Of a stretch of 15,519 nt of DNA, positions 1 to 6,830 are shown piece by piece. Source of the DNA: a virus (Duplodnaviria; Heunggongvirae; Uroviricota; Caudoviricetes); IMG/VR virus record IMGVR_UViG_2534681626_000023; one strand, written 5' to 3'. The notes under the pieces were generated by a model. The model saw nothing but the letters and a program-made list of their open reading frames with translations, searched no databases and was not told where the DNA came from. Both the position numbers and the translations under genes were made by a program. Each line of letters opens with the position of its first letter. Positions within the stretch are counted from its first letter, which is position 1.

Positions 1-1479
1 TCATTTTGTCGCCTCATTGCGCGGGGCAGGAATAAATTCGCCGTCATCAGTAATTTTTCCGTCCAGATATCCCGTTTTGTAATTTACGCCATAGCCATAT
101 CCCGAATGTTGTTCCTTCCAGATTAAGCGAACTTGTTTCGGATCAGCGGTGCGGTATCGCCAGAGCTGCGCGCCATCAAAGCTGTAAATGTAGCGGTTAT
201 CGCGGGCATACCATCTGCGCAAAAAGGGATGGTCATTAAGATGGGCTTCGCGTTCATCCGGAGAACGGTTATCCAGTAAGATCAGCGGTCCGTCAGATTC
301 AAACACATGTAAACCGGAATGGTATGGCCACCCTTCGGCACGCGTAAGTAAATAGCCGTGGCGTTTCCCGGCGTTGAAACGTTTGTTGATAATAAGATTG
401 GGATCATCAAGTTTCACGATTTCCAGCTTGCGGTCACCAGACTCTGTTTCGATGATGGTATAAAGCGAGTCCTGATACTGGGCGACAGCATCACTGATGG
501 GTTGAAACTGCTCCGGATCGAGTCCGGGTAATTCTTCCTGTTTACAAGCAGGTCCTTTACGCCAGAACACTTTCTTTTCCAGCAGAGAAAAATCCAGACA
601 GTGCTTTGTTAAATCTTCATCCCACGCCAGATTTTCCTTGTCGAGGACTTTACGCTGCAGCCCGTTTTTATCACGCCAGGTCAAGAGTGAGCCGGGCATC
701 CAGCGCACGACGGAAAAGGTGTCCGGGTCGGCATCAAGCTGTTCGCCGTTGATCAGGATTTTGGTCCGTGTACGAGCCAGGGTATCCCAGGGGCCAAATG
801 GCATAGCCACACAGGGATTAAACGCGGTAGAAAACTTTCCTCGCTGATCCCATGACTTTTGTGCCAGCACACGGAAACTATCGGGATCTGCGAGGCGATG
901 CCCATTGATATACAAGAAATTAGCGTCACGTAATATCAGCCCCAGTAAGTCAGGATCCCGGGGAGGCCGGAATTCCACCTGATGCAGTGTTTTGATATCT
1001 AAGCGATTTCCCCCGCCATTGTTATCTGTGCGCTTGCCTTCGAAATAGAGACTGTGTTTATCTGCGGCAAAATCACCCCACGCCTTGAACGAGGCGACAT
1101 CGACGGGAGGTTTGTCTGGCGGGGTTTGCACAACTTCACCCGCGTAGAGGATATAGCGACCATCGCTATGCAAGGAGTAATGAGGATACCAGGCCTGTGC
1201 GCCTTCATAGAGGTAGTCGGTTGTCAGATCAGTCAGAGGAGGTACTTTATCCCATTTGTCTAGTGTTGTCGGGTCTATTAATAAATTGGGTAAACGGCGC
1301 AAACTTTTGTAATTCACGTCAGGAAGAGAAAGATTTGTTTCTTTATAAGGGCGCAGGTATACCACGCCTTTTCCCTGTTTCTGGTAAATATTATGTTCAG
1401 GCGGATCAAGCCGACATCCCCATGCCGACGATAAAAACAATGAACAAGACAACAAACAAACCACATTGCGATAGTGCAT
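1..1479 (-). CDS. Host chromosomal gene, 5' part (about 492 aa in window; C-terminus runs off the window start). Predicted secreted or periplasmic protein of unknown function with an N-terminal signal peptide.
   Basis: Long minus-strand ORF open to position 1. The ORF track starts it at 1506, but 1494..1506 is Mu terminal sequence that happens to be open in frame. The first ATG on the host side is at 1479, preceded by AGGA (1490..1487) at 7-nt spacing. N-terminus MHYRNVVCLLSCSLFLSSAWGC has a basic n-region and hydrophobic core, typical of a Sec signal peptide. Family not recognised. Confidence 0.6.
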   Translation of the reverse strand: MHYRNVVCLLSCSLFLSSAWGCRLDPPEHNIYQKQGKGVVYLRPYKETNLSLPDVNYKSLRRLPNLLIDPTTLDKWDKVPPLTDLTTDYLYEGAQAWYPHYSLHSDGRYILYAGEVVQTPPDKPPVDVASFKAWGDFAADKHSLYFEGKRTDNNGGGNRLDIKTLHQVEFRPPRDPDLLGLILRDANFLYINGHRLADPDSFRVLAQKSWDQRGKFSTAFNPCVAMPFGPWDTLARTRTKILINGEQLDADPDTFSVVRWMPGSLLTWRDKNGLQRKVLDKENLAWDEDLTKHCLDFSLLEKKVFWRKGPACKQEELPGLDPEQFQPISDAVAQYQDSLYTIIETESGDRKLEIVKLDDPNLIINKRFNAGKRHGYLLTRAEGWPYHSGLHVFESDGPLILLDNRSPDEREAHLNDHPFLRRWYARDNRYIYSFDGAQLWRYRTADPKQVRLIWKEQHSGYGYGVNYKTGYLDGKITDDGEFIPAPRNEATK

Positions 1480-1493
1480 AAAGCCATCCTGGC

Positions 1494-1575
1494 TGAAGCG
1501 GCGCACGAAAAACGCGAAAGCGTTTCACGATAAATGCGAAAACTTTAGCTTTCGCGCTTCAAATGAAACAGCAGT
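1494..1575 (-). other. attR: Mu right-end attachment region (attR) with transposase MuA end-binding sites (R1-R3 type repeats); element terminus at 1494.
   Basis: Terminal TG dinucleotide at 1494-1495 followed by repeated CGAAAA / TTTCAC-containing motifs (CACGAAAAACGCGAAAG, GCGTTTCACGATAAATGCGAAAAC) resembling the MuA binding consensus. Recalled from the Mu literature, not computed. Confidence 0.75.
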
Positions 1576-1587
1576 ATTAATTACTGC
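1571..1587. terminator. Short hairpin (GCAGTA-TTAAT-TACTGC) between the mom stop and attR, with a T-run on the plus strand; possible weak terminator.
   Basis: 6-bp inverted repeat read directly. On the plus strand it is followed by TTTTTATTC, on the minus strand by TGTTTCATTT. Stem is AT-rich and short, so function is uncertain. Confidence 0.25.
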
Positions 1588-1608
1588 TTTTTATTCATTA
1601 CATGGGGA

Positions 1609-2304
1609 TCACTTAGGGTATGGCTGAACCCTGAATAGTTTGGTATTTAGCCGCTTCCTTGCTCGCTTGTTCAGGAATCTGATGTAGCGATACTGATTAA
1701 ATTTGTGCACCACGGCACGCTCTTTATTAGCCCGTAAATACACGCCTCGTTGTCCACCCCGCTTAATCGCGTTCATTGTTATCTCGTGATACCACTCACC
1801 ATCCAGCTCGTAGAACGTGCTTTCATGGCTGCCAATAAAATCAAAATTCGACGCCTGATACACAACGCCTGCGCGTCCGCAGCGTTCGTCAGCAAATGAC
1901 TGAACCCACTCCACTGACGGATACAGTAATCTGATAACTTTCAGCGCGTAGCTGATGGCCCGTGATTCAGAGTTGCGGGGCATGTCGTCGTGTAGCCACA
2001 TGCGATTCAACTCCATATAGCCCCGGTTATCCGTTTCAAGCACGACACGACGACCTGAGTTGGGGTTAAGGGCATATCCCCACTGGAGAACGCCAACCAG
2101 ATCGCGTCCGCTGAATACTCCCAGGTGGAGGTAAGAGTTATTCACAAAACGGCGGGAATAGTGCTTTGTCTGAATAATTGTGCGGGCCAGCCAGCAGGAT
2201 ATGGTTTCAACGCGCAGTTCCTTTGAACCATAGCCAACAATCTGGCCTTCATACTCAATAACGCACGGTTTCGTCAGAATGCGTGATTTTTTCTCTTTTC
2301 CCAC
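1609..2304 (-). CDS. mom: Mom DNA-modification protein (adenine methylcarbamoylation; anti-restriction), 231 aa, GTG start.
   Basis: ORF 1609..2334 translation matches the Mu Mom family as I recall it. I place the start at GTG 2304 rather than the track ATG 2334, because GGAG lies 7 nt upstream of the GUG and both sit inside a CCCAC...GUGGG hairpin (see 2300..2320), matching the known Com-dependent translational control. Overlaps com by about 50 nt. Confidence 0.88.
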
Positions 2305-2443
2305 AATGTTTCTCCGTGGGATGCTCGCAGGCATTCAGCATTATGATGTGACGTTTGCAACGCGGACACCTGATTTCAATGTGATCAAAGGAATCCGCCT
2401 TAAATAACAGTTTGTTGCAGTTTTTACAGCGAATTGATTTCAT
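2255..2443 (-). CDS. com: Com, zinc-finger translational activator of mom (62 aa).
   Basis: 62-aa [17 protein letters not shown]...[11 protein letters not shown] with two C-x2-C pairs (zinc-binding), located immediately upstream of and overlapping mom. Matches Mu Com as I recall it. Confidence 0.9.
2300..2320 (-). promoter_or_regulatory. mom translation-initiation hairpin that sequesters the SD (GGAG) and GUG start; target of Com translational activation.
   Basis: mRNA sequence CCCACGGAGAAACAUUGUGGG: CCCAC pairs with GUGGG, with GGAG and the GUG start inside the loop and 3' stem. Read directly; interpretation follows established Mu com/mom biology. Confidence 0.7.
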
Positions 2444-2555
2444 CTCACCTCCTTTGCATCAATTCGCCACTATCTTAAAAAACATCGTGGGTTGAGTGTG
2501 GTTATTGGGGCATAATCGATCTGTATTACCGATCGATTCAATTGATTCGATCGTC
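2444..2555 (-). promoter_or_regulatory. com-mom promoter and upstream control region with a cluster of three Dam GATC sites (2518..2521, 2531..2534, 2549..2552); expected OxyR and C-protein responsive region.
   Basis: Three GATC sites within 35 bp, read directly, about 75-110 bp upstream of the com ATG and overlapping the 3' end of gin. In Mu, methylation of such a triad blocks OxyR repression of mom and the late activator C binds near the promoter. Exact -35/-10 elements not assigned. Confidence 0.65.
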
Positions 2556-3119
2556 GTTTTCTATATGCGTTCGTTTGGCGGGGTGTTTTTTATACAGCGT
2601 TGACAGGGCCACATCGTAGATCAATGCGACCTGCTTGCGGGGGATTCCTTGTGCTAATAAACGCCCGGCCTGCTCCCATTCCGCTTTGGTTAGTTTAGGT
2701 GGTCGACCACCGATACGGCCTTTATTTCTGGCAGCAGCAAGTCCAGCCATCGTTCTCTCGATGATTAGTTCTCGTTCCATCTCAGCCAGGGCACCCATAA
2801 CGTGGAAGAAAAAACGCCCCATTGGAGATGACGTATCAATACTGTCAGTAAGACTGCGAAAATTAATCCCTCGCTCTCGTAATTCCCCTACGAGAGAAAT
2901 CAGATGTTTCATGCTTCGCCCGAGGCGATCCAGTTTCCAGACAACCAGCGTGTCACCTTTTTGAAGGCGCTTTAAAGCGCGTCTTAATCCCGGTCGGTCT
3001 GTCTTTGTCCCGCTTAATTTATCTTCAAATATTTGTTCACATCCTGCACAAACAAGAGCGTTTCGTTGCAAGTCTGTATTCTGGTCATTTGTTGATACCC
3101 TTACATAGCCAATCAGCAC
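2538..3119 (-). CDS. gin: Gin DNA invertase (serine recombinase of the Gin/Hin/Pin/Cin family), 193 aa, GTG start.
   Basis: Translation (V)LIGYVRVSTNDQNTDLQRNALVCAGCEQIFEDKLSG... carries the serine-recombinase catalytic motif RVSTNDQ and a C-terminal HTH region. The track starts at TTG 3137; I prefer GTG 3119, which is preceded by GGGAGA at 7-nt spacing and gives the Mu Gin N-terminus (M)LIGYVRVS. Confidence 0.9.
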   Translation of the reverse strand: MLIGYVRVSTNDQNTDLQRNALVCAGCEQIFEDKLSGTKTDRPGLRRALKRLQKGDTLVVWKLDRLGRSMKHLISLVGELRERGINFRSLTDSIDTSSPMGRFFFHVMGALAEMERELIIERTMAGLAAARNKGRIGGRPPKLTKAEWEQAGRLLAQGIPRKQVALIYDVALSTLYKKHPAKRTHIENDDRIN

Positions 3120-3173
3120 GCTGAATCTCCCGTCCAAAAGCGTAAATCATGCCATGCAGGTCAGAAACGGCCA

Positions 3174-3199
3174 TTATCTAAAACCTCGGTTTGCAGGAA
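3174..3199. repeat. gix: gix recombination site (gin-proximal), 26-bp core TTATCTAAAACCTCGGTTTGCAGGAA; inverted copy of 6309..6334.
   Basis: Read directly. It is in inverted orientation to TTCCTGTAAACCGAGGTTTTGGATAA at 6309..6334 (2 mismatches in 26) and lies within longer imperfect inverted repeats of about 92 bp (about 10 mismatches). Closely resembles Hin/Gin-family hix/gix sites. Central crossover dinucleotide at 3186-3187. Confidence 0.85.
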
Positions 3200-4270
3200 A
3201 CGGTAAATCTGGCTTCTGGCGCATTACAAAAAAACCAGAACGGCGCGGATATTCCTGATAAGGATCGCTTCCTGAGTAACATTAATGTTTACAGCAAAGG
3301 CGAGGTGGATAAGAAAAAAGGAATGCGGCAGTACGCATTTAATGCGCCGTCTAATGCAGTTGGTGGAAAGTGGTATCCAGTTATTTTCCGGCGTTCCACA
3401 GGCAGCACTGGCGAGCTGGCTTCCAGAGTGATTATAACGACCACATCTGCCACTGGTGATTACGCAATGAATAACTGCGAATTCAATGGAATGGTAATGC
3501 CTGGTGGCTGGACTGATCATGGTTCATATGCGGCAGGTTATTTTTCGACGTATCAGACTAATGAGCGCGCAATCCACTCCATTGTAACAAGCCTTAAAGA
3601 AGATGATGTATGCAGCGTTTTTTACGTTGAAGGCAGGGCTTTTCCTGTGCGGGTTTCTGCTGAAGAAGGGCTAACGGTTATTGTTCCAACTCAGGATTAT
3701 ACCGTCGGTCAAACAACATATAAGTGGGGAGCAACTAATCCCGCGACAGAAAGCACGAACGCACAAGCCATTCTGGATTTTAACAATGGGCGAGGGTTTT
3801 ATTGTTCTCACTCAATATTCGGTATTAATGCCATTTTTAGCGGAAATCTGGGGATTGGAACGGCTAATGCCCTGGGGGGAAATTCAATAGTTTTAGGAGA
3901 TAACGATACTGGGTTTAAACAAAATGGTGATGGGGTGCTGGATGCTTATGCTAATGGTGTGCATGTGTTCCGCTTTCAGAACGGTACGTTACAGAGCAAA
4001 AAAGAAATAAGTATCACTGGGCGGATATTACCGTCTGATTTCAGTAATTTAGATTCCCGATATGTAAAAGATGTTCGGCTTGGCTCACAGCAATATTATG
4101 GTGTGAACAACTGGCAAACATGGAATTTCCAGTGCCCGTCAGGTCATGTATTATCTGGTATTAATGTTCAGGATACAGGGTCCAATTCTGCCGATAATAT
4201 AGCGGGTGTTTATTACAGACCAGTTCAAAAGTATATAAATGGCACTTGGTATAATGTAGCGAGCGTTTAA
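3191..4270 (+). CDS. S: Silent alternative tail-fiber variable cassette (Sv-type), promoterless and start-less; would be fused to the constant S N-terminus after inversion (predicted fusion about 530 aa).
   Basis: ORF open from the gix site with no credible own start (the track M is a TTG inside the repeat). N-terminal residues [21 protein letters not shown] mirror the junction of the expressed fiber, and the C-terminal tip ...[12 protein letters not shown] is paralogous to the expressed tip ...CINGTWYNAGSI. Frame checked: in phase with Sc after inversion. Confidence 0.8.
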
Positions 4271-4271
4271 T

Positions 4272-4799
4272 ATGATGCACTTAAAGAACATAAAAGCAGG
4301 TAACGCTAAAACACTGGAGCAGTATGAGTTAACAAAGAAGCACGGAGTCATCTGGCTTTACTCTGAGGACGAAAAAAACTGGTATGAGGAAGTGAAAAAC
4401 TTTCAGCCAGACACAATAAAGATTGTTTACGATGCAAATAATATTATTGTCGCCATCACTAAAGATGCCTCCACGCTTAACCCTGAAGGTTTTAGCGTCG
4501 TTGAGGTTCCCGATATAACAGCCAACCGCCGCGCTGATGATTCAGGAAAGTGGATGTTTAAGGATGGAGCTGTAGTTAAACGGATTTATACGGCAGACGA
4601 ACAGCAACAACAAGCCGAATCACAAAAGGTCGCGTTGCTTTCTGAAGCTGAAAGCGTTATTCAGCCACTGGAACGCGCTGTCAGGCTGAATATGGCGACG
4701 GATGAGGAACGCACACGACTGGAGTCATGGGAACGCTACAGCGTTCTGGTCAGCCGTGTGGATACAGCAAATCCCGAATGGCCACAAAAGCCTGAGTAA
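4272..4799 (+). CDS. U: Tail fiber assembly protein, alternative copy (175 aa), currently in the silent orientation.
   Basis: Begins 1 nt after the Sv stop. N-terminal 120 aa are clearly paralogous to the 177-aa minus-strand chaperone (MMHLKNI.AGN.KT.EQY.LTK...WYEE.KNFQPDT...[18 protein letters not shown]). Tail-fiber assembly chaperone family by position and similarity. Confidence 0.85.
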
Positions 4800-4804
4800 A
4801 AATT

Positions 4805-4824
4805 AAGGCCCAATATCGGGCCTT
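4805..4824. terminator. Hairpin (AAGGCCC-AATATC-GGGCCTT) shared by the convergent U and U' genes at the centre of the G segment; likely bidirectional terminator.
   Basis: 7-bp GC-rich stem read directly, lying in the 28-bp gap between the two convergent stop codons (4797..4799 and 4828..4830). On the minus-strand transcript it is followed by AAUUUUUA. Confidence 0.45.
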
Positions 4825-4827
4825 CTC

Positions 4828-5361
4828 TCATTCTGGTTGTTCGGGAAACGTTACTGGCAGGCTGGAGGTGTCTGTAGATTCGACTTTCTGCGCATAGAGC
4901 ATCCACTCGGTTAATTTTTGTTTATTCTCGTCGGAAATGATGCCCAGCCGTAGCTGTGAGTCCCATAGCTGGGTTTTATCCCTGACAAGTTGCAACAGGC
5001 TTTGCTTTTCATTTTCCGCTTGTTGCCTCTGCTCTTCCTCGGTATAAGTTCGCTTTATCACTACGCCATCTTTGAACAACCATTTCCCCGAAATATCAGC
5101 CCGGCGATTTGCTGTAATATCAGGTAATTCAACGACGCTTGCGCCTTCCGGATTAATTGCTGAAACATCCTTTTCAATACAAATAATAACGCCGTTATGG
5201 TCATAGACCATTTTCAAAGTGTCTGGCTGGAAATTCTTTTGTTCCTCATACCAGTTTTTTCCATCATCTGAATAAAGCCATTTGATGTTAAATTGCTTTG
5301 TTAGCTGGTATTGCTCTTTTGTTTTAGGGTTGCCAGCAGTAATATTTTTTAAGTGCATCAT
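4828..5361 (-). CDS. U': Tail fiber assembly protein, currently expressed copy (177 aa).
   Basis: Immediately downstream (minus strand) of the expressed tail fiber gene. Paralogous to the plus-strand 175-aa copy. Confidence 0.85.
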   Translation of the reverse strand: MMHLKNITAGNPKTKEQYQLTKQFNIKWLYSDDGKNWYEEQKNFQPDTLKMVYDHNGVIICIEKDVSAINPEGASVVELPDITANRRADISGKWLFKDGVVIKRTYTEEEQRQQAENEKQSLLQLVRDKTQLWDSQLRLGIISDENKQKLTEWMLYAQKVESTDTSSLPVTFPEQPE

Positions 5362-5363
5362 AA

Positions 5364-6830
5364 TTAAATACTCCCCGCGTTATACCACGTTCCATTAATG
5401 CAATACTGAATTGGCCTTGCCTGAGTTATATCAATTAATTCATCACGGTTTCCGTTAACTGAACCAGTAACGACATAACCTGACCTGTCAGACCAGCCAG
5501 GACCATTCCATGTCTGAACAGATGACAGACCGCCAAGGCGAATACCTGTAATAAACCTTGAGTTACATTCTGCCTGCGTATATGCACCAACATCTCCCGC
5601 AGAGGGTTTGCGTGTTGTGGTGTAAAACTCTGACCAGTTAGCTTCAAAGCCATAACCATCACGCGCTGAACGATAAAAGATACCGCCATTTCTGTAATTC
5701 ACGCGGAACTGTACAGCAGGGCAACTCCCCGCATTCATATTAAAGTGGAGGATTAATGTCGATGCGCCACTGATATCTGCATCATAAACGCCGCTATTCC
5801 AGTTCCAGCCAACAGCTTTATCATTTGCGACCCTGCGTCCTGTTTGCCCTAAAGCAAATGCAGGCTGCTGGTTTTTCGTGTTGTAGTCTCGTCGCCAGCC
5901 AGGAGCGTAAGCATCACCATGATTAATATAAGTGAATTGAGCGTTAGTGATTCCGCCACCGCTGGACGTGCTCGGCGTGGTAACGCGTATGGTCATTGCG
6001 CCGCGGGTGCCAATAACTTCCACCACAGCACCTGCAAGACAAATATTTCCGCAACCTGTATCTGTAATGACCTTATTATTTGCATAAGCCCATGAGCCTT
6101 TGCACATCCAGTAAGGATGGTTAAATGCCCCCTGACTCTCCAGCCACGAAATAAATTGCGCAGTTGTCCAGACCTGACTATCGCCACCAATATTCAGCCA
6201 TGCGCTATATGCGCGACAGGCCCCAATATTTTTGGTGAAGGTATCTTTTCCCGGAATATCTGCGCCGTTCTGTTTTTTCTGTAATGCGCCAGAAGCCTGA
6301 TTTACCGTTTCCTGTAAACCGAGGTTTTGGATAAACAGCGGCTTATTGGGAATATCTGCTCCGTTCCGGTCTTTTGCCAGACGGGCATTGGCATTATCCA
6401 TCGCAATTTTCACCGCTTTTGCGGTGGCTGCCAGCGTTTCACTGGGGCTGTCAGTGGCACTGGTTAGCTGAACGAGGCCTTTTTTGTTCAGGCTGGCATC
6501 CCAGATATCCAGATTTTCACGTGCTGTACGCTGTGCTGATGCCCCGGCAATTTTAATTTCGCTGAGGTTATTTTTTATCAGCAGCGCGTTATTGCTCATA
6601 ATGGCTTTAATGGACAGTGCAAGCTGGTTTAATTTTGTTTTATCCGGTTGAATACCGGCTTCTTCCAGCGTGTTTAATAACTCCGCCTGCACAATATTAA
6701 ACCAGTCCATACCGGGCCATGTGATAGCATTATTCCCGTCACCTTCTGAAAACCAGCGAACGATAGCACTACGCTGGGCGGATACGGGCGGCATGACGGT
6801 TACGCCGCTGTCGTTATCAATATAAAACAT
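5364..6830 (-). CDS. S': Tail fiber protein in its currently expressed form (488 aa): constant N-terminal part Sc (6322..6830, outside G) fused to the variable cassette inside G (5364..6321).
   Basis: ORF crosses the gix site at 6309..6334 (encoding [11 protein letters not shown]). Its start ATG at 6830 overlaps the stop of the upstream baseplate gene. Assignment as the S' (G-minus) form is an inference from the sizes 488 versus about 530 aa and chaperone lengths 177 versus 175 aa. Confidence 0.85.
   Translation of the reverse strand: MFYIDNDSGVTVMPPVSAQRSAIVRWFSEGDGNNAITWPGMDWFNIVQAELLNTLEEAGIQPDKTKLNQLALSIKAIMSNNALLIKNNLSEIKIAGASAQRTARENLDIWDASLNKKGLVQLTSATDSPSETLAATAKAVKIAMDNANARLAKDRNGADIPNKPLFIQNLGLQETVNQASGALQKKQNGADIPGKDTFTKNIGACRAYSAWLNIGGDSQVWTTAQFISWLESQGAFNHPYWMCKGSWAYANNKVITDTGCGNICLAGAVVEVIGTRGAMTIRVTTPSTSSGGGITNAQFTYINHGDAYAPGWRRDYNTKNQQPAFALGQTGRRVANDKAVGWNWNSGVYDADISGASTLILHFNMNAGSCPAVQFRVNYRNGGIFYRSARDGYGFEANWSEFYTTTRKPSAGDVGAYTQAECNSRFITGIRLGGLSSVQTWNGPGWSDRSGYVVTGSVNGNRDELIDITQARPIQYCINGTWYNAGSI
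6309..6334. repeat. gix: gix recombination site (tail-gene-proximal), 26-bp core TTCCTGTAAACCGAGGTTTTGGATAA, located inside the tail fiber coding sequence.
   Basis: Inverted copy of 3174..3199. Central crossover dinucleotide GA at 6321-6322. Confidence 0.85.

Follow-up and report, generated by a model that had tools for sequence, protein, structure and literature searches.

The mom gene of phage Mu encodes a lethal DNA-modification enzyme that is kept silent until the Com protein unlocks its start codon. The mechanism of this translational switch is already known. The Com-binding hairpin and the "translation inhibition structure" (TIS) of Mu go back to Wulczyn & Kahmann 1991, Hattman et al. 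1991 and Hattman 1999, as these works are cited in PMC6483171, and the latter paper places the GUG start of Mom in the stem of the TIS. The Com target sequence is given there as 5'-GAAUGCCUGCGAGCAUCCCACGGAG-3', and the TIS is proposed to become unstable when Com binds. According to the summary in the same paper, probing and footprinting have backed both the presence of the TIS and the ability of Com to open it; the Com used in PMC6483171 itself was truncated, and TIS melting was not observed in that study. Binding of Com at its target and melting of the TIS are taken here as the published model, in the form in which PMC6483171 and the work cited there present it. The present analysis contributes the layout of the element and its match to the Mu sequence, the predicted fold, the lack of a Shine-Dalgarno (SD) sequence at an upstream ATG and the comparative exclusion of that ATG.

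We have analysed a locus of this kind in IMG/VR virus record IMGVR_UViG_2534681626_000023; the window is the whole 15,519-nucleotide stretch of DNA under analysis. We conclude with high confidence that the element is the com-mom translational control of a Mu/SfMu-like prophage and that Mom is a protein of 231 aa translated from the GUG at 2304-2302, not from the ATG at 2334. The 241-aa mom open reading frame (ORF) with an ATG start that is found in databases is very probably wrong.

Genomic context of the com-mom locus

The window contains the right-hand end of an E. coli prophage of the Mu/SfMu type, with gin, com, mom, the Mu right end and host DNA following one another on the minus strand. 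Within the minus-strand segment 1494-3137, gin occupies 3137..2538, com 2443..2255 and the mom ORF 2334..1609. Megablast over 1707 nt gave 98.5% identity of the prophage to Shigella phage SfMu and 97.1% identity to phage Mu. Between 2240 and 2460 (221 nt) the window matches Mu, SfMu and D108 with 100% identity; this stretch begins shortly before com and extends 60 nt beyond the start of mom. Because the com/mom junction is identical to that of Mu, experimental knowledge of Mu is directly applicable to the window sequence.

The com gene (2443..2255, minus strand) encodes a 62-aa zinc-ribbon translational activator (Pfam PF10122 Zn_ribbon_Com, E = 2.7e-9) and is 100% identical to Mu com. Its SD sequence GGAGG (2448..2452, minus strand) is the same as the ribosome-binding site (RBS) annotated in AF083977, and the best anti-SD duplex at the AUG of com has an energy of -12.9 kcal/mol. 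The mom coding sequence read from GUG (1609..2304, minus strand; 231 aa plus stop) encodes the DNA adenine-modifying enzyme Mom, which differs from Mu Mom in one residue near the C-terminus. The 3' end of com overlaps this GUG-started mom by exactly 50 nt (2304-2255), in line with the overlap of about 50 nt and the 231-aa product that the initial annotation had claimed from the same in-frame GTG. Upstream of the mom promoter lie three GATC (Dam) sites (2552-2549, 2534-2531 and 2521-2518, minus strand). The promoter region has 99% identity to that of Mu with the three GATC sites kept, and AF083977 annotates a late promoter in the region of these sites. No sigma-70 consensus was detectable when the mom promoter region was scanned for one. 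The GATC sites upstream of the mom promoter presumably have a role in the Dam/OxyR control of Mu.

Database names for the two proteins vary. PGAP calls Com a 'Com family DNA-binding transcriptional regulator' (RefSeq loci L128 and L129), whereas the literature describes an RNA-binding translational activator, and the Mom protein WP_001111707.1 is still labelled 'hypothetical protein' in one genome.

A terminator-like hairpin (1570..1588, minus strand) lies 3' of mom, and the Mu right end (...CGCTTCA) ends at about 1494 on the minus strand, after which E. coli DNA begins. The prophage/host junction is at 1493/1494, where the Mu right end adjoins E. coli DNA (window 1..1506, minus strand). The flank is recognisable in uninterrupted genomes such as that of E. 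coli D5, in which it carries the gene for a 502-aa hypothetical protein (WP_000580514.1) beside a DKNYY-family gene. The prophage is inserted about 16 nt within the 5' end of the WP_000580514.1 gene and leaves at the junction a 501-aa fusion ORF, the GTG start of which lies within the Mu end. The longest gin ORF (2538..3137, minus strand) has a TTG start and 199 aa, compared with 193 aa for the annotated Mu gin and 197 aa for that of SfMu and D108, and is a further case of a longest-ORF start unlike the annotated start. Beyond gin, the gene order across 3191..6830 resembles an invertible G segment, apparently oriented, with respect to gin, for expression of S-U; its ORFs lie at 5364..6830 (488 aa) and 4828..5361 (177 aa) on the minus strand and at 4272..4799 (175 aa) and 3191..4270 (359 aa) on the plus strand.

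Structure of the mom start region

The initial annotation had placed both the SD sequence of mom and a GUG start codon inside a stem of the mRNA, and the RNA string on which it relied, CCCACGGAGAAACAUUGUGGG, was located at 2320..2300 on the minus strand. Here CCCAC (2320-2316) pairs with GUGGG (2304-2300). Folding, which had been proposed as a check of the mom start, bears this stem out: RNAfold lengthens the 5-bp pairing to 8 bp (UCCCACGG/UUGUGGGA, closing a 7-nt loop), giving the TIS hairpin at 2299..2321 on the minus strand. The energy of the TIS in a 29-nt segment (2324..2296) is -9.5 kcal/mol. Dinucleotide shuffles have a mean of -3.94 +/- 1.81 kcal/mol (z = -3.07), and a single one among 200 reaches a fold as stable. 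The same hairpin recurs in folding contexts of 51, 63, 81 and 266 nt.

The GUG (2302..2304, minus strand) lies in the 3' arm of the TIS and is the start of the coding sequence in AF083977. In the 266-nt mRNA context all three of its bases have a P(unpaired) of 0.00. The SD sequence GGAG (2312..2315, minus strand) stands 7 nt 5' of the GUG and corresponds to the RBS at 35896..35899 in AF083977. Base by base, its P(unpaired) in the same context is 0.14, 0.33, 0.90 and 0.64; the first two G's are paired as G.U wobbles, and the A and the last G fall in the loop, at the stem/loop junction. The claim for the GUG was therefore accurate, but "SD inside the stem" was a slight overstatement because GGAG is only half sequestered. 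That the GUG is arranged as for Com-activated translation also stands, given a region identical to that of Mu, for which PMC6483171 places the GUG in the TIS.

Adjoining the TIS on its 5' side is the Com-binding hairpin AUGC[CUGCGA]GCAU (2321..2334, minus strand), with a 4-bp stem and a 6-nt loop that carries CC(N)3GAG, and this hairpin is contained in the published Com target. U2321 is common to both predicted stems. The in-frame ATG of the 241-aa ORF (2332..2334, minus strand) lies 30 nt upstream of the GUG and within com, where the initial annotation had described it as lacking an SD sequence. This description proved correct: the best duplex with the 16S anti-SD has an energy of -6.6 kcal/mol at the GUG and of +1.2 kcal/mol at ATG 2334, which consequently has no ribosome-binding site. 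By its predicted pairing ATG 2334 belongs to the 5' arm of the Com hairpin, so that its letters are stem bases and no start codon, and we judge that it is not the Mom start.

Taken together with the published model, this anatomy describes how the switch would operate. An activator-dependent mom promoter would supply a com-mom mRNA, on which com would be translated via its strong and open ribosome-binding site. As long as the mRNA is free, the TIS would hold the GUG together with the first two bases of GGAG, and ribosomes would be unable to initiate at mom because these bases are paired, leaving the toxic enzyme unmade. Com would bind the hairpin at 2334-2321 (loop CUGCGA, CC..GAG) that adjoins the TIS, and its binding would shift the equilibrium towards an open TIS with the SD sequence and the GUG exposed. 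Ribosomes could initiate at the GUG once the TIS is open.

Database records and residue numbering of Mom

Reference records disagree about the mom start. The curated GenBank Mu record AF083977 has a GTG start (mom 35907..36602, 231 aa, RBS at GGAG), as do two newer Mu-type phage records, PhiR68_1 and Mu_3F6. An ATG start is given in RefSeq NC_000929, in SfMu, in D108 and in the PGAP protein WP_001111707.1 of E. coli chromosomes. Comparison with reference annotation had been suggested as a means of settling the start; its outcome is ambiguous, and we rejected this route since the records contradict one another. The ATG annotations look like longest-ORF calls made without experimental evidence.

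Were these ATG records right, Mom would be a protein of 241 aa from ATG 2334 (2334..1609, minus strand) and the GUG an internal valine codon. We regard this as very unlikely. It is the longest ORF, it is the form annotated in the four sources just named, and a 241-aa construct is active when artificially expressed (PMC13219725). Against this form, its ATG has no SD sequence and sits within the stem of the Com-binding hairpin, and the GUG is the start named both in PMC6483171 and in AF083977. Furthermore, the ten additional residues are dispensable. Their removal (Delta10) "is well tolerated": the shortened Mom keeps full activity, and crystals were obtained with this form (PMC13219725).

The protein data agree with the shorter form. 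The Mom ORF matches Pfam PF25680 Mom (E = 2.8e-75), a domain that does not start until residue 39 of the 241-aa ORF. The PDB entry 8BV8, 'Methylcarbamoylase mom', aligns with the 241-aa ORF (E = 2.8e-158) from residue V11 onwards; the Delta10 "truncation" is the GUG-start protein itself. The calculated mass of the 231-aa form in the window, which has one residue unlike Mu Mom, is 27070 Da, and that of the 241-aa form is 28174 Da. For Mom lacking its initiator Met, a mass of 27050 Da has been reported (PMC7261163); this value was obtained with a recombinant construct and fits the 231-aa Mom minus Met.

The biochemistry of Mom in PMC7261163 was described in 231-aa numbering (H48, Y49, R101, S114, D139 and Y149). 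A 2026 paper (PMC13219725) calls the 241-aa form 'full-length' and numbers residues on the 241-aa ORF (H58, Y59, R111, S124...), and the residues it names coincide with invariant columns of our Mom alignment in the same numbering. The literature consequently holds two incompatible numberings, in which the same serine is S114 in PMC7261163 and S124 in PMC13219725.

Mu-like relatives at the start region

The loci of Mom relatives that were compared comprise 44 IMG/VR loci and 80 genome loci. Among the Mu-like sequences, 14 distinct variants of the start region were found, and GGAG and GUG are unchanged in all of them. The arms of the TIS stem, CCCAC and GUGGG, show a sole change, a C->U that turns a C-G pair into U.G and keeps the pairing (L008), and the 4-mer of the loop is variable (AAAC, CUGU, AUUC, ACAU, AAAU and UUAA). 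One alignment (A3, MAFFT) misplaces the 3' arm of the Edwardsiella anguillarum locus L051 and was left out of the TIS pair counts.

The stem arms lie within two overlapping reading frames, and conservation alone is therefore no proof of structure. Changes on both sides of a TIS pair were not seen within the Mu-like clade, so conservation there is inseparable from coding constraint. The hairpin might on these grounds be explained as a by-product of the overlapping frames (com ...HPTEKHCG..., mom VG...) with no regulatory role, since the arms encode conserved residues in both frames and would be expected to be invariant anyway; the single C->U change is the only one in this clade. The folding energy speaks against such a by-product, being equalled by only one shuffle in the set of 200, as do the published probing and footprinting results summarised in PMC6483171, which favour a TIS that Com can open. 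Distant loci of unrelated sequence, described below, weigh against it as well, and we consider the probability that the hairpin lacks a regulatory role to be practically negligible.

The relatives are more informative about the upstream ATG. In six close relatives among the IMG/VR loci GTG takes the place of ATG 2334, and pairing to the 3' arm of the Com hairpin is preserved through a G.U. In a Scandinavium MAG (L049), which has an intact Mom of 81% identity, the frame reads MPLSIPR*RRVIVGKQKK..., with an in-frame stop between ATG and GTG. An in-frame stop is found between the two codons in Apirhabdus too (L063; MPQSIPRS*LVGKENK...). The Edwardsiella anguillarum locus, with an intact Mom, has its GTG within CCCCAC...GUGGGG and has no in-frame start upstream of that GTG. 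Judged by their reading frames, these three loci exclude the ATG start outright, with less weight on the Apirhabdus locus. The mom gene of Apirhabdus apintestini is disrupted after about residue 194 (L063:1780-1950), where the frame diverges and stops appear; it is probably a pseudogene, and its upstream stop therefore weighs less than that of the Scandinavium locus. In an alignment of 32 proteins the N-termini of the homologues align at the Mu GUG (MGKEKKSR, MGKQKKSR, MAQKLSR...), and the ten extra residues of the 241-aa form are unaligned. The suspicion raised by the initial annotation that the ATG of the ORF track is wrong is thus supported by the GTG start of AF083977, by the stops in L049 and L063 and by the lack of an upstream start in L051.

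Use of both starts, giving isoforms of 241 and 231 aa with the ATG serving Com-independent or low-level expression, could be proposed since the two codons share a reading frame and either form has enzymatic activity (PMC13219725). The evidence against an ATG start holds here as well, the control circuit would be pointless if a toxic protein could be made without Com, and an intact Mom is kept in relatives with stops between the two codons. We give the two-isoform possibility hardly any credence and retain the GUG at 2304-2302 as the start of Mom.

One further Mom homologue of 81% identity, from an Enterobacteriaceae MAG (L050:1185-1220), has as its only candidate start a UUG in a perfect 13-bp hairpin, CUGUUUUCUCAAU...UUGAGAAAACAG. 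No com was detectable at this locus.

Com-type hairpins across Proteobacteria

A com-like zinc-ribbon ORF is present in 46 of the 75 analysable genome loci, mostly ending 35-75 nt inside mom. In the 70 nt preceding the picked mom start, 38 of the 46 com-bearing loci, which come from gamma-, alpha- and delta-type Proteobacteria, have one or two Com-type hairpins (NNNC[C-N2-4-GA]GN'N'N'), compared with 2 of the 29 loci without com. They typically lie at about -30 and, in many loci of the alpha-/delta-type, also at about -54. Their density is 16.8 per kb upstream of mom and 0.12 per kb elsewhere in the loci, counted on both strands. As an unbiased figure, three complementary pairs flank CC(N)2-3GAG in 57% of cases upstream of mom versus 6% elsewhere.

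The hairpins in alignment A5 were pre-selected for full pairing, and a value of '100% paired' in it holds by construction; only the diversity of pair types is therefore informative. At the position of the Mu "U-A" stem pair this diversity is considerable (C-G 11, G-C 6, U-A 4, G-U 2 and A-U 1), and the closing C-G of the Com hairpin is invariant in 24/24 of these sequences pre-selected for pairing. The stem positions that read "AUG" in Mu are ACG, AGG, GCG, GAG or AGA elsewhere. SELEX of Com ligands, in which the hairpin stem varied but the closing C-G did not (PMC6483171), agrees with the covariation seen here. The hairpin is also read in a different com frame in different loci: by manual reading of the sequences, Mu has A-AUG-CCU... 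(com AAU-GCC-UGC), unlike L077, which has GA[A-GGC-CAU-GGA-GCC-U]CC. This difference in com frame between Mu and alpha-/delta-proteobacterial loci points to selection on the Com hairpin at the RNA level, and it argues against the TIS hairpin being a by-product of overlapping frames.

In distant com-bearing loci a second hairpin containing the SD sequence and/or the start codon usually follows on the 3' side of the Com-type hairpin. The recurrence of a start codon/SD hairpin directly 3' of a Com-type hairpin in loci of unrelated sequence likewise runs counter to a by-product. Across 75 distant loci the median P(unpaired) of the mom start codon was 0.21 with com and 0.39 without, with starts picked by a crude SD score, and the lower accessibility predicted in the presence of com is only suggestive.

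An Rfam search with the com-mom element returned no family at the gathering threshold, and only chance-level matches to snoRNAs and sRNAs (E > 3). From these comparisons it seems likely that the Com-responsive element, made up of one or two Com-type hairpins and, after them, a hairpin with the SD sequence or the start codon of mom, represents a widespread and covarying family of cis-regulatory RNAs that is absent from Rfam. If so, an RNA stem of this family, and no start codon, would underlie both the 241-aa Mom start of RefSeq/PGAP and the way in which residues are numbered in the 2026 crystal-structure paper. The conservation of the Com hairpin with covariation across Proteobacteria could seed an RNA family model. 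The practical value of the present results lies in annotation, as RefSeq NC_000929, WP_001111707.1, SfMu and D108 carry a 241-aa Mom from a codon without an RBS. New here is the comparative support from the in-frame stops, from the relative with no upstream start and from the covariation of the "AUG" stem; the stops and the covariation argue independently for adopting the GUG as the standard start.

Two variations on the element were observed. Many alpha-/delta-proteobacterial com-mom loci (L077, L079, L080, L082, L085, L087, L098, L100-L102, L105, L108, L111, L117 and L118) carry a tandem pair of Com-type hairpins with a spacing of about 22 nt, such as GGGC[CGCGA]GCCC and AGGC[CAUGGA]GCCU, where Mu has one hairpin. 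Such tandem hairpins may be related to the bipartite SELEX motif of PMC6483171. In Symbiopectobacterium (L052, about 1170-1215) and Pantoea persica (L083, about 1190-1236) a com-like gene is present, and the SD sequence of mom is held in a strong hairpin, GUCUCCG...CGGAGAC, with the AUG just downstream. The CC(N)2-3GAG hairpin is absent from both of these loci.

Comparison with known systems

The closest described system is the com-mom operon of Mu. The locus in the window shares with it the nucleotides of com and of the mom start, the order gin-com-mom-right end, the promoter region with three GATC sites, the GUG, the SD sequence, the TIS and the Com target. In the element itself no difference was found; the prophage as a whole is nearer to SfMu, and Mom differs in one residue.

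The Com-regulated mom or methyltransferase loci of other Mu-like prophages, such as FluMu hin1523 (PMC3299994), resemble the locus in that the gene for a Com zinc-ribbon protein overlaps the 5' end of a modification gene by about 35-75 nt and in that a CC(N)2-3GAG hairpin lies 5' of a structured start region. They differ from Mu in their stems, and many have AUG instead of GUG or carry tandem hairpins. Unlike Mu, the loci L052, L083 and L057 sequester the SD sequence instead of the start codon.

A more distant analogy, drawn in PMC6483171, is that with HIV Tat-TAR. In both systems a small basic or zinc-binding protein activates expression from a hexaloop hairpin with CC..GAG and a closing C-G. 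The two are evolutionarily unrelated, and Tat-TAR acts on transcription elongation, whereas Com acts on translation initiation.
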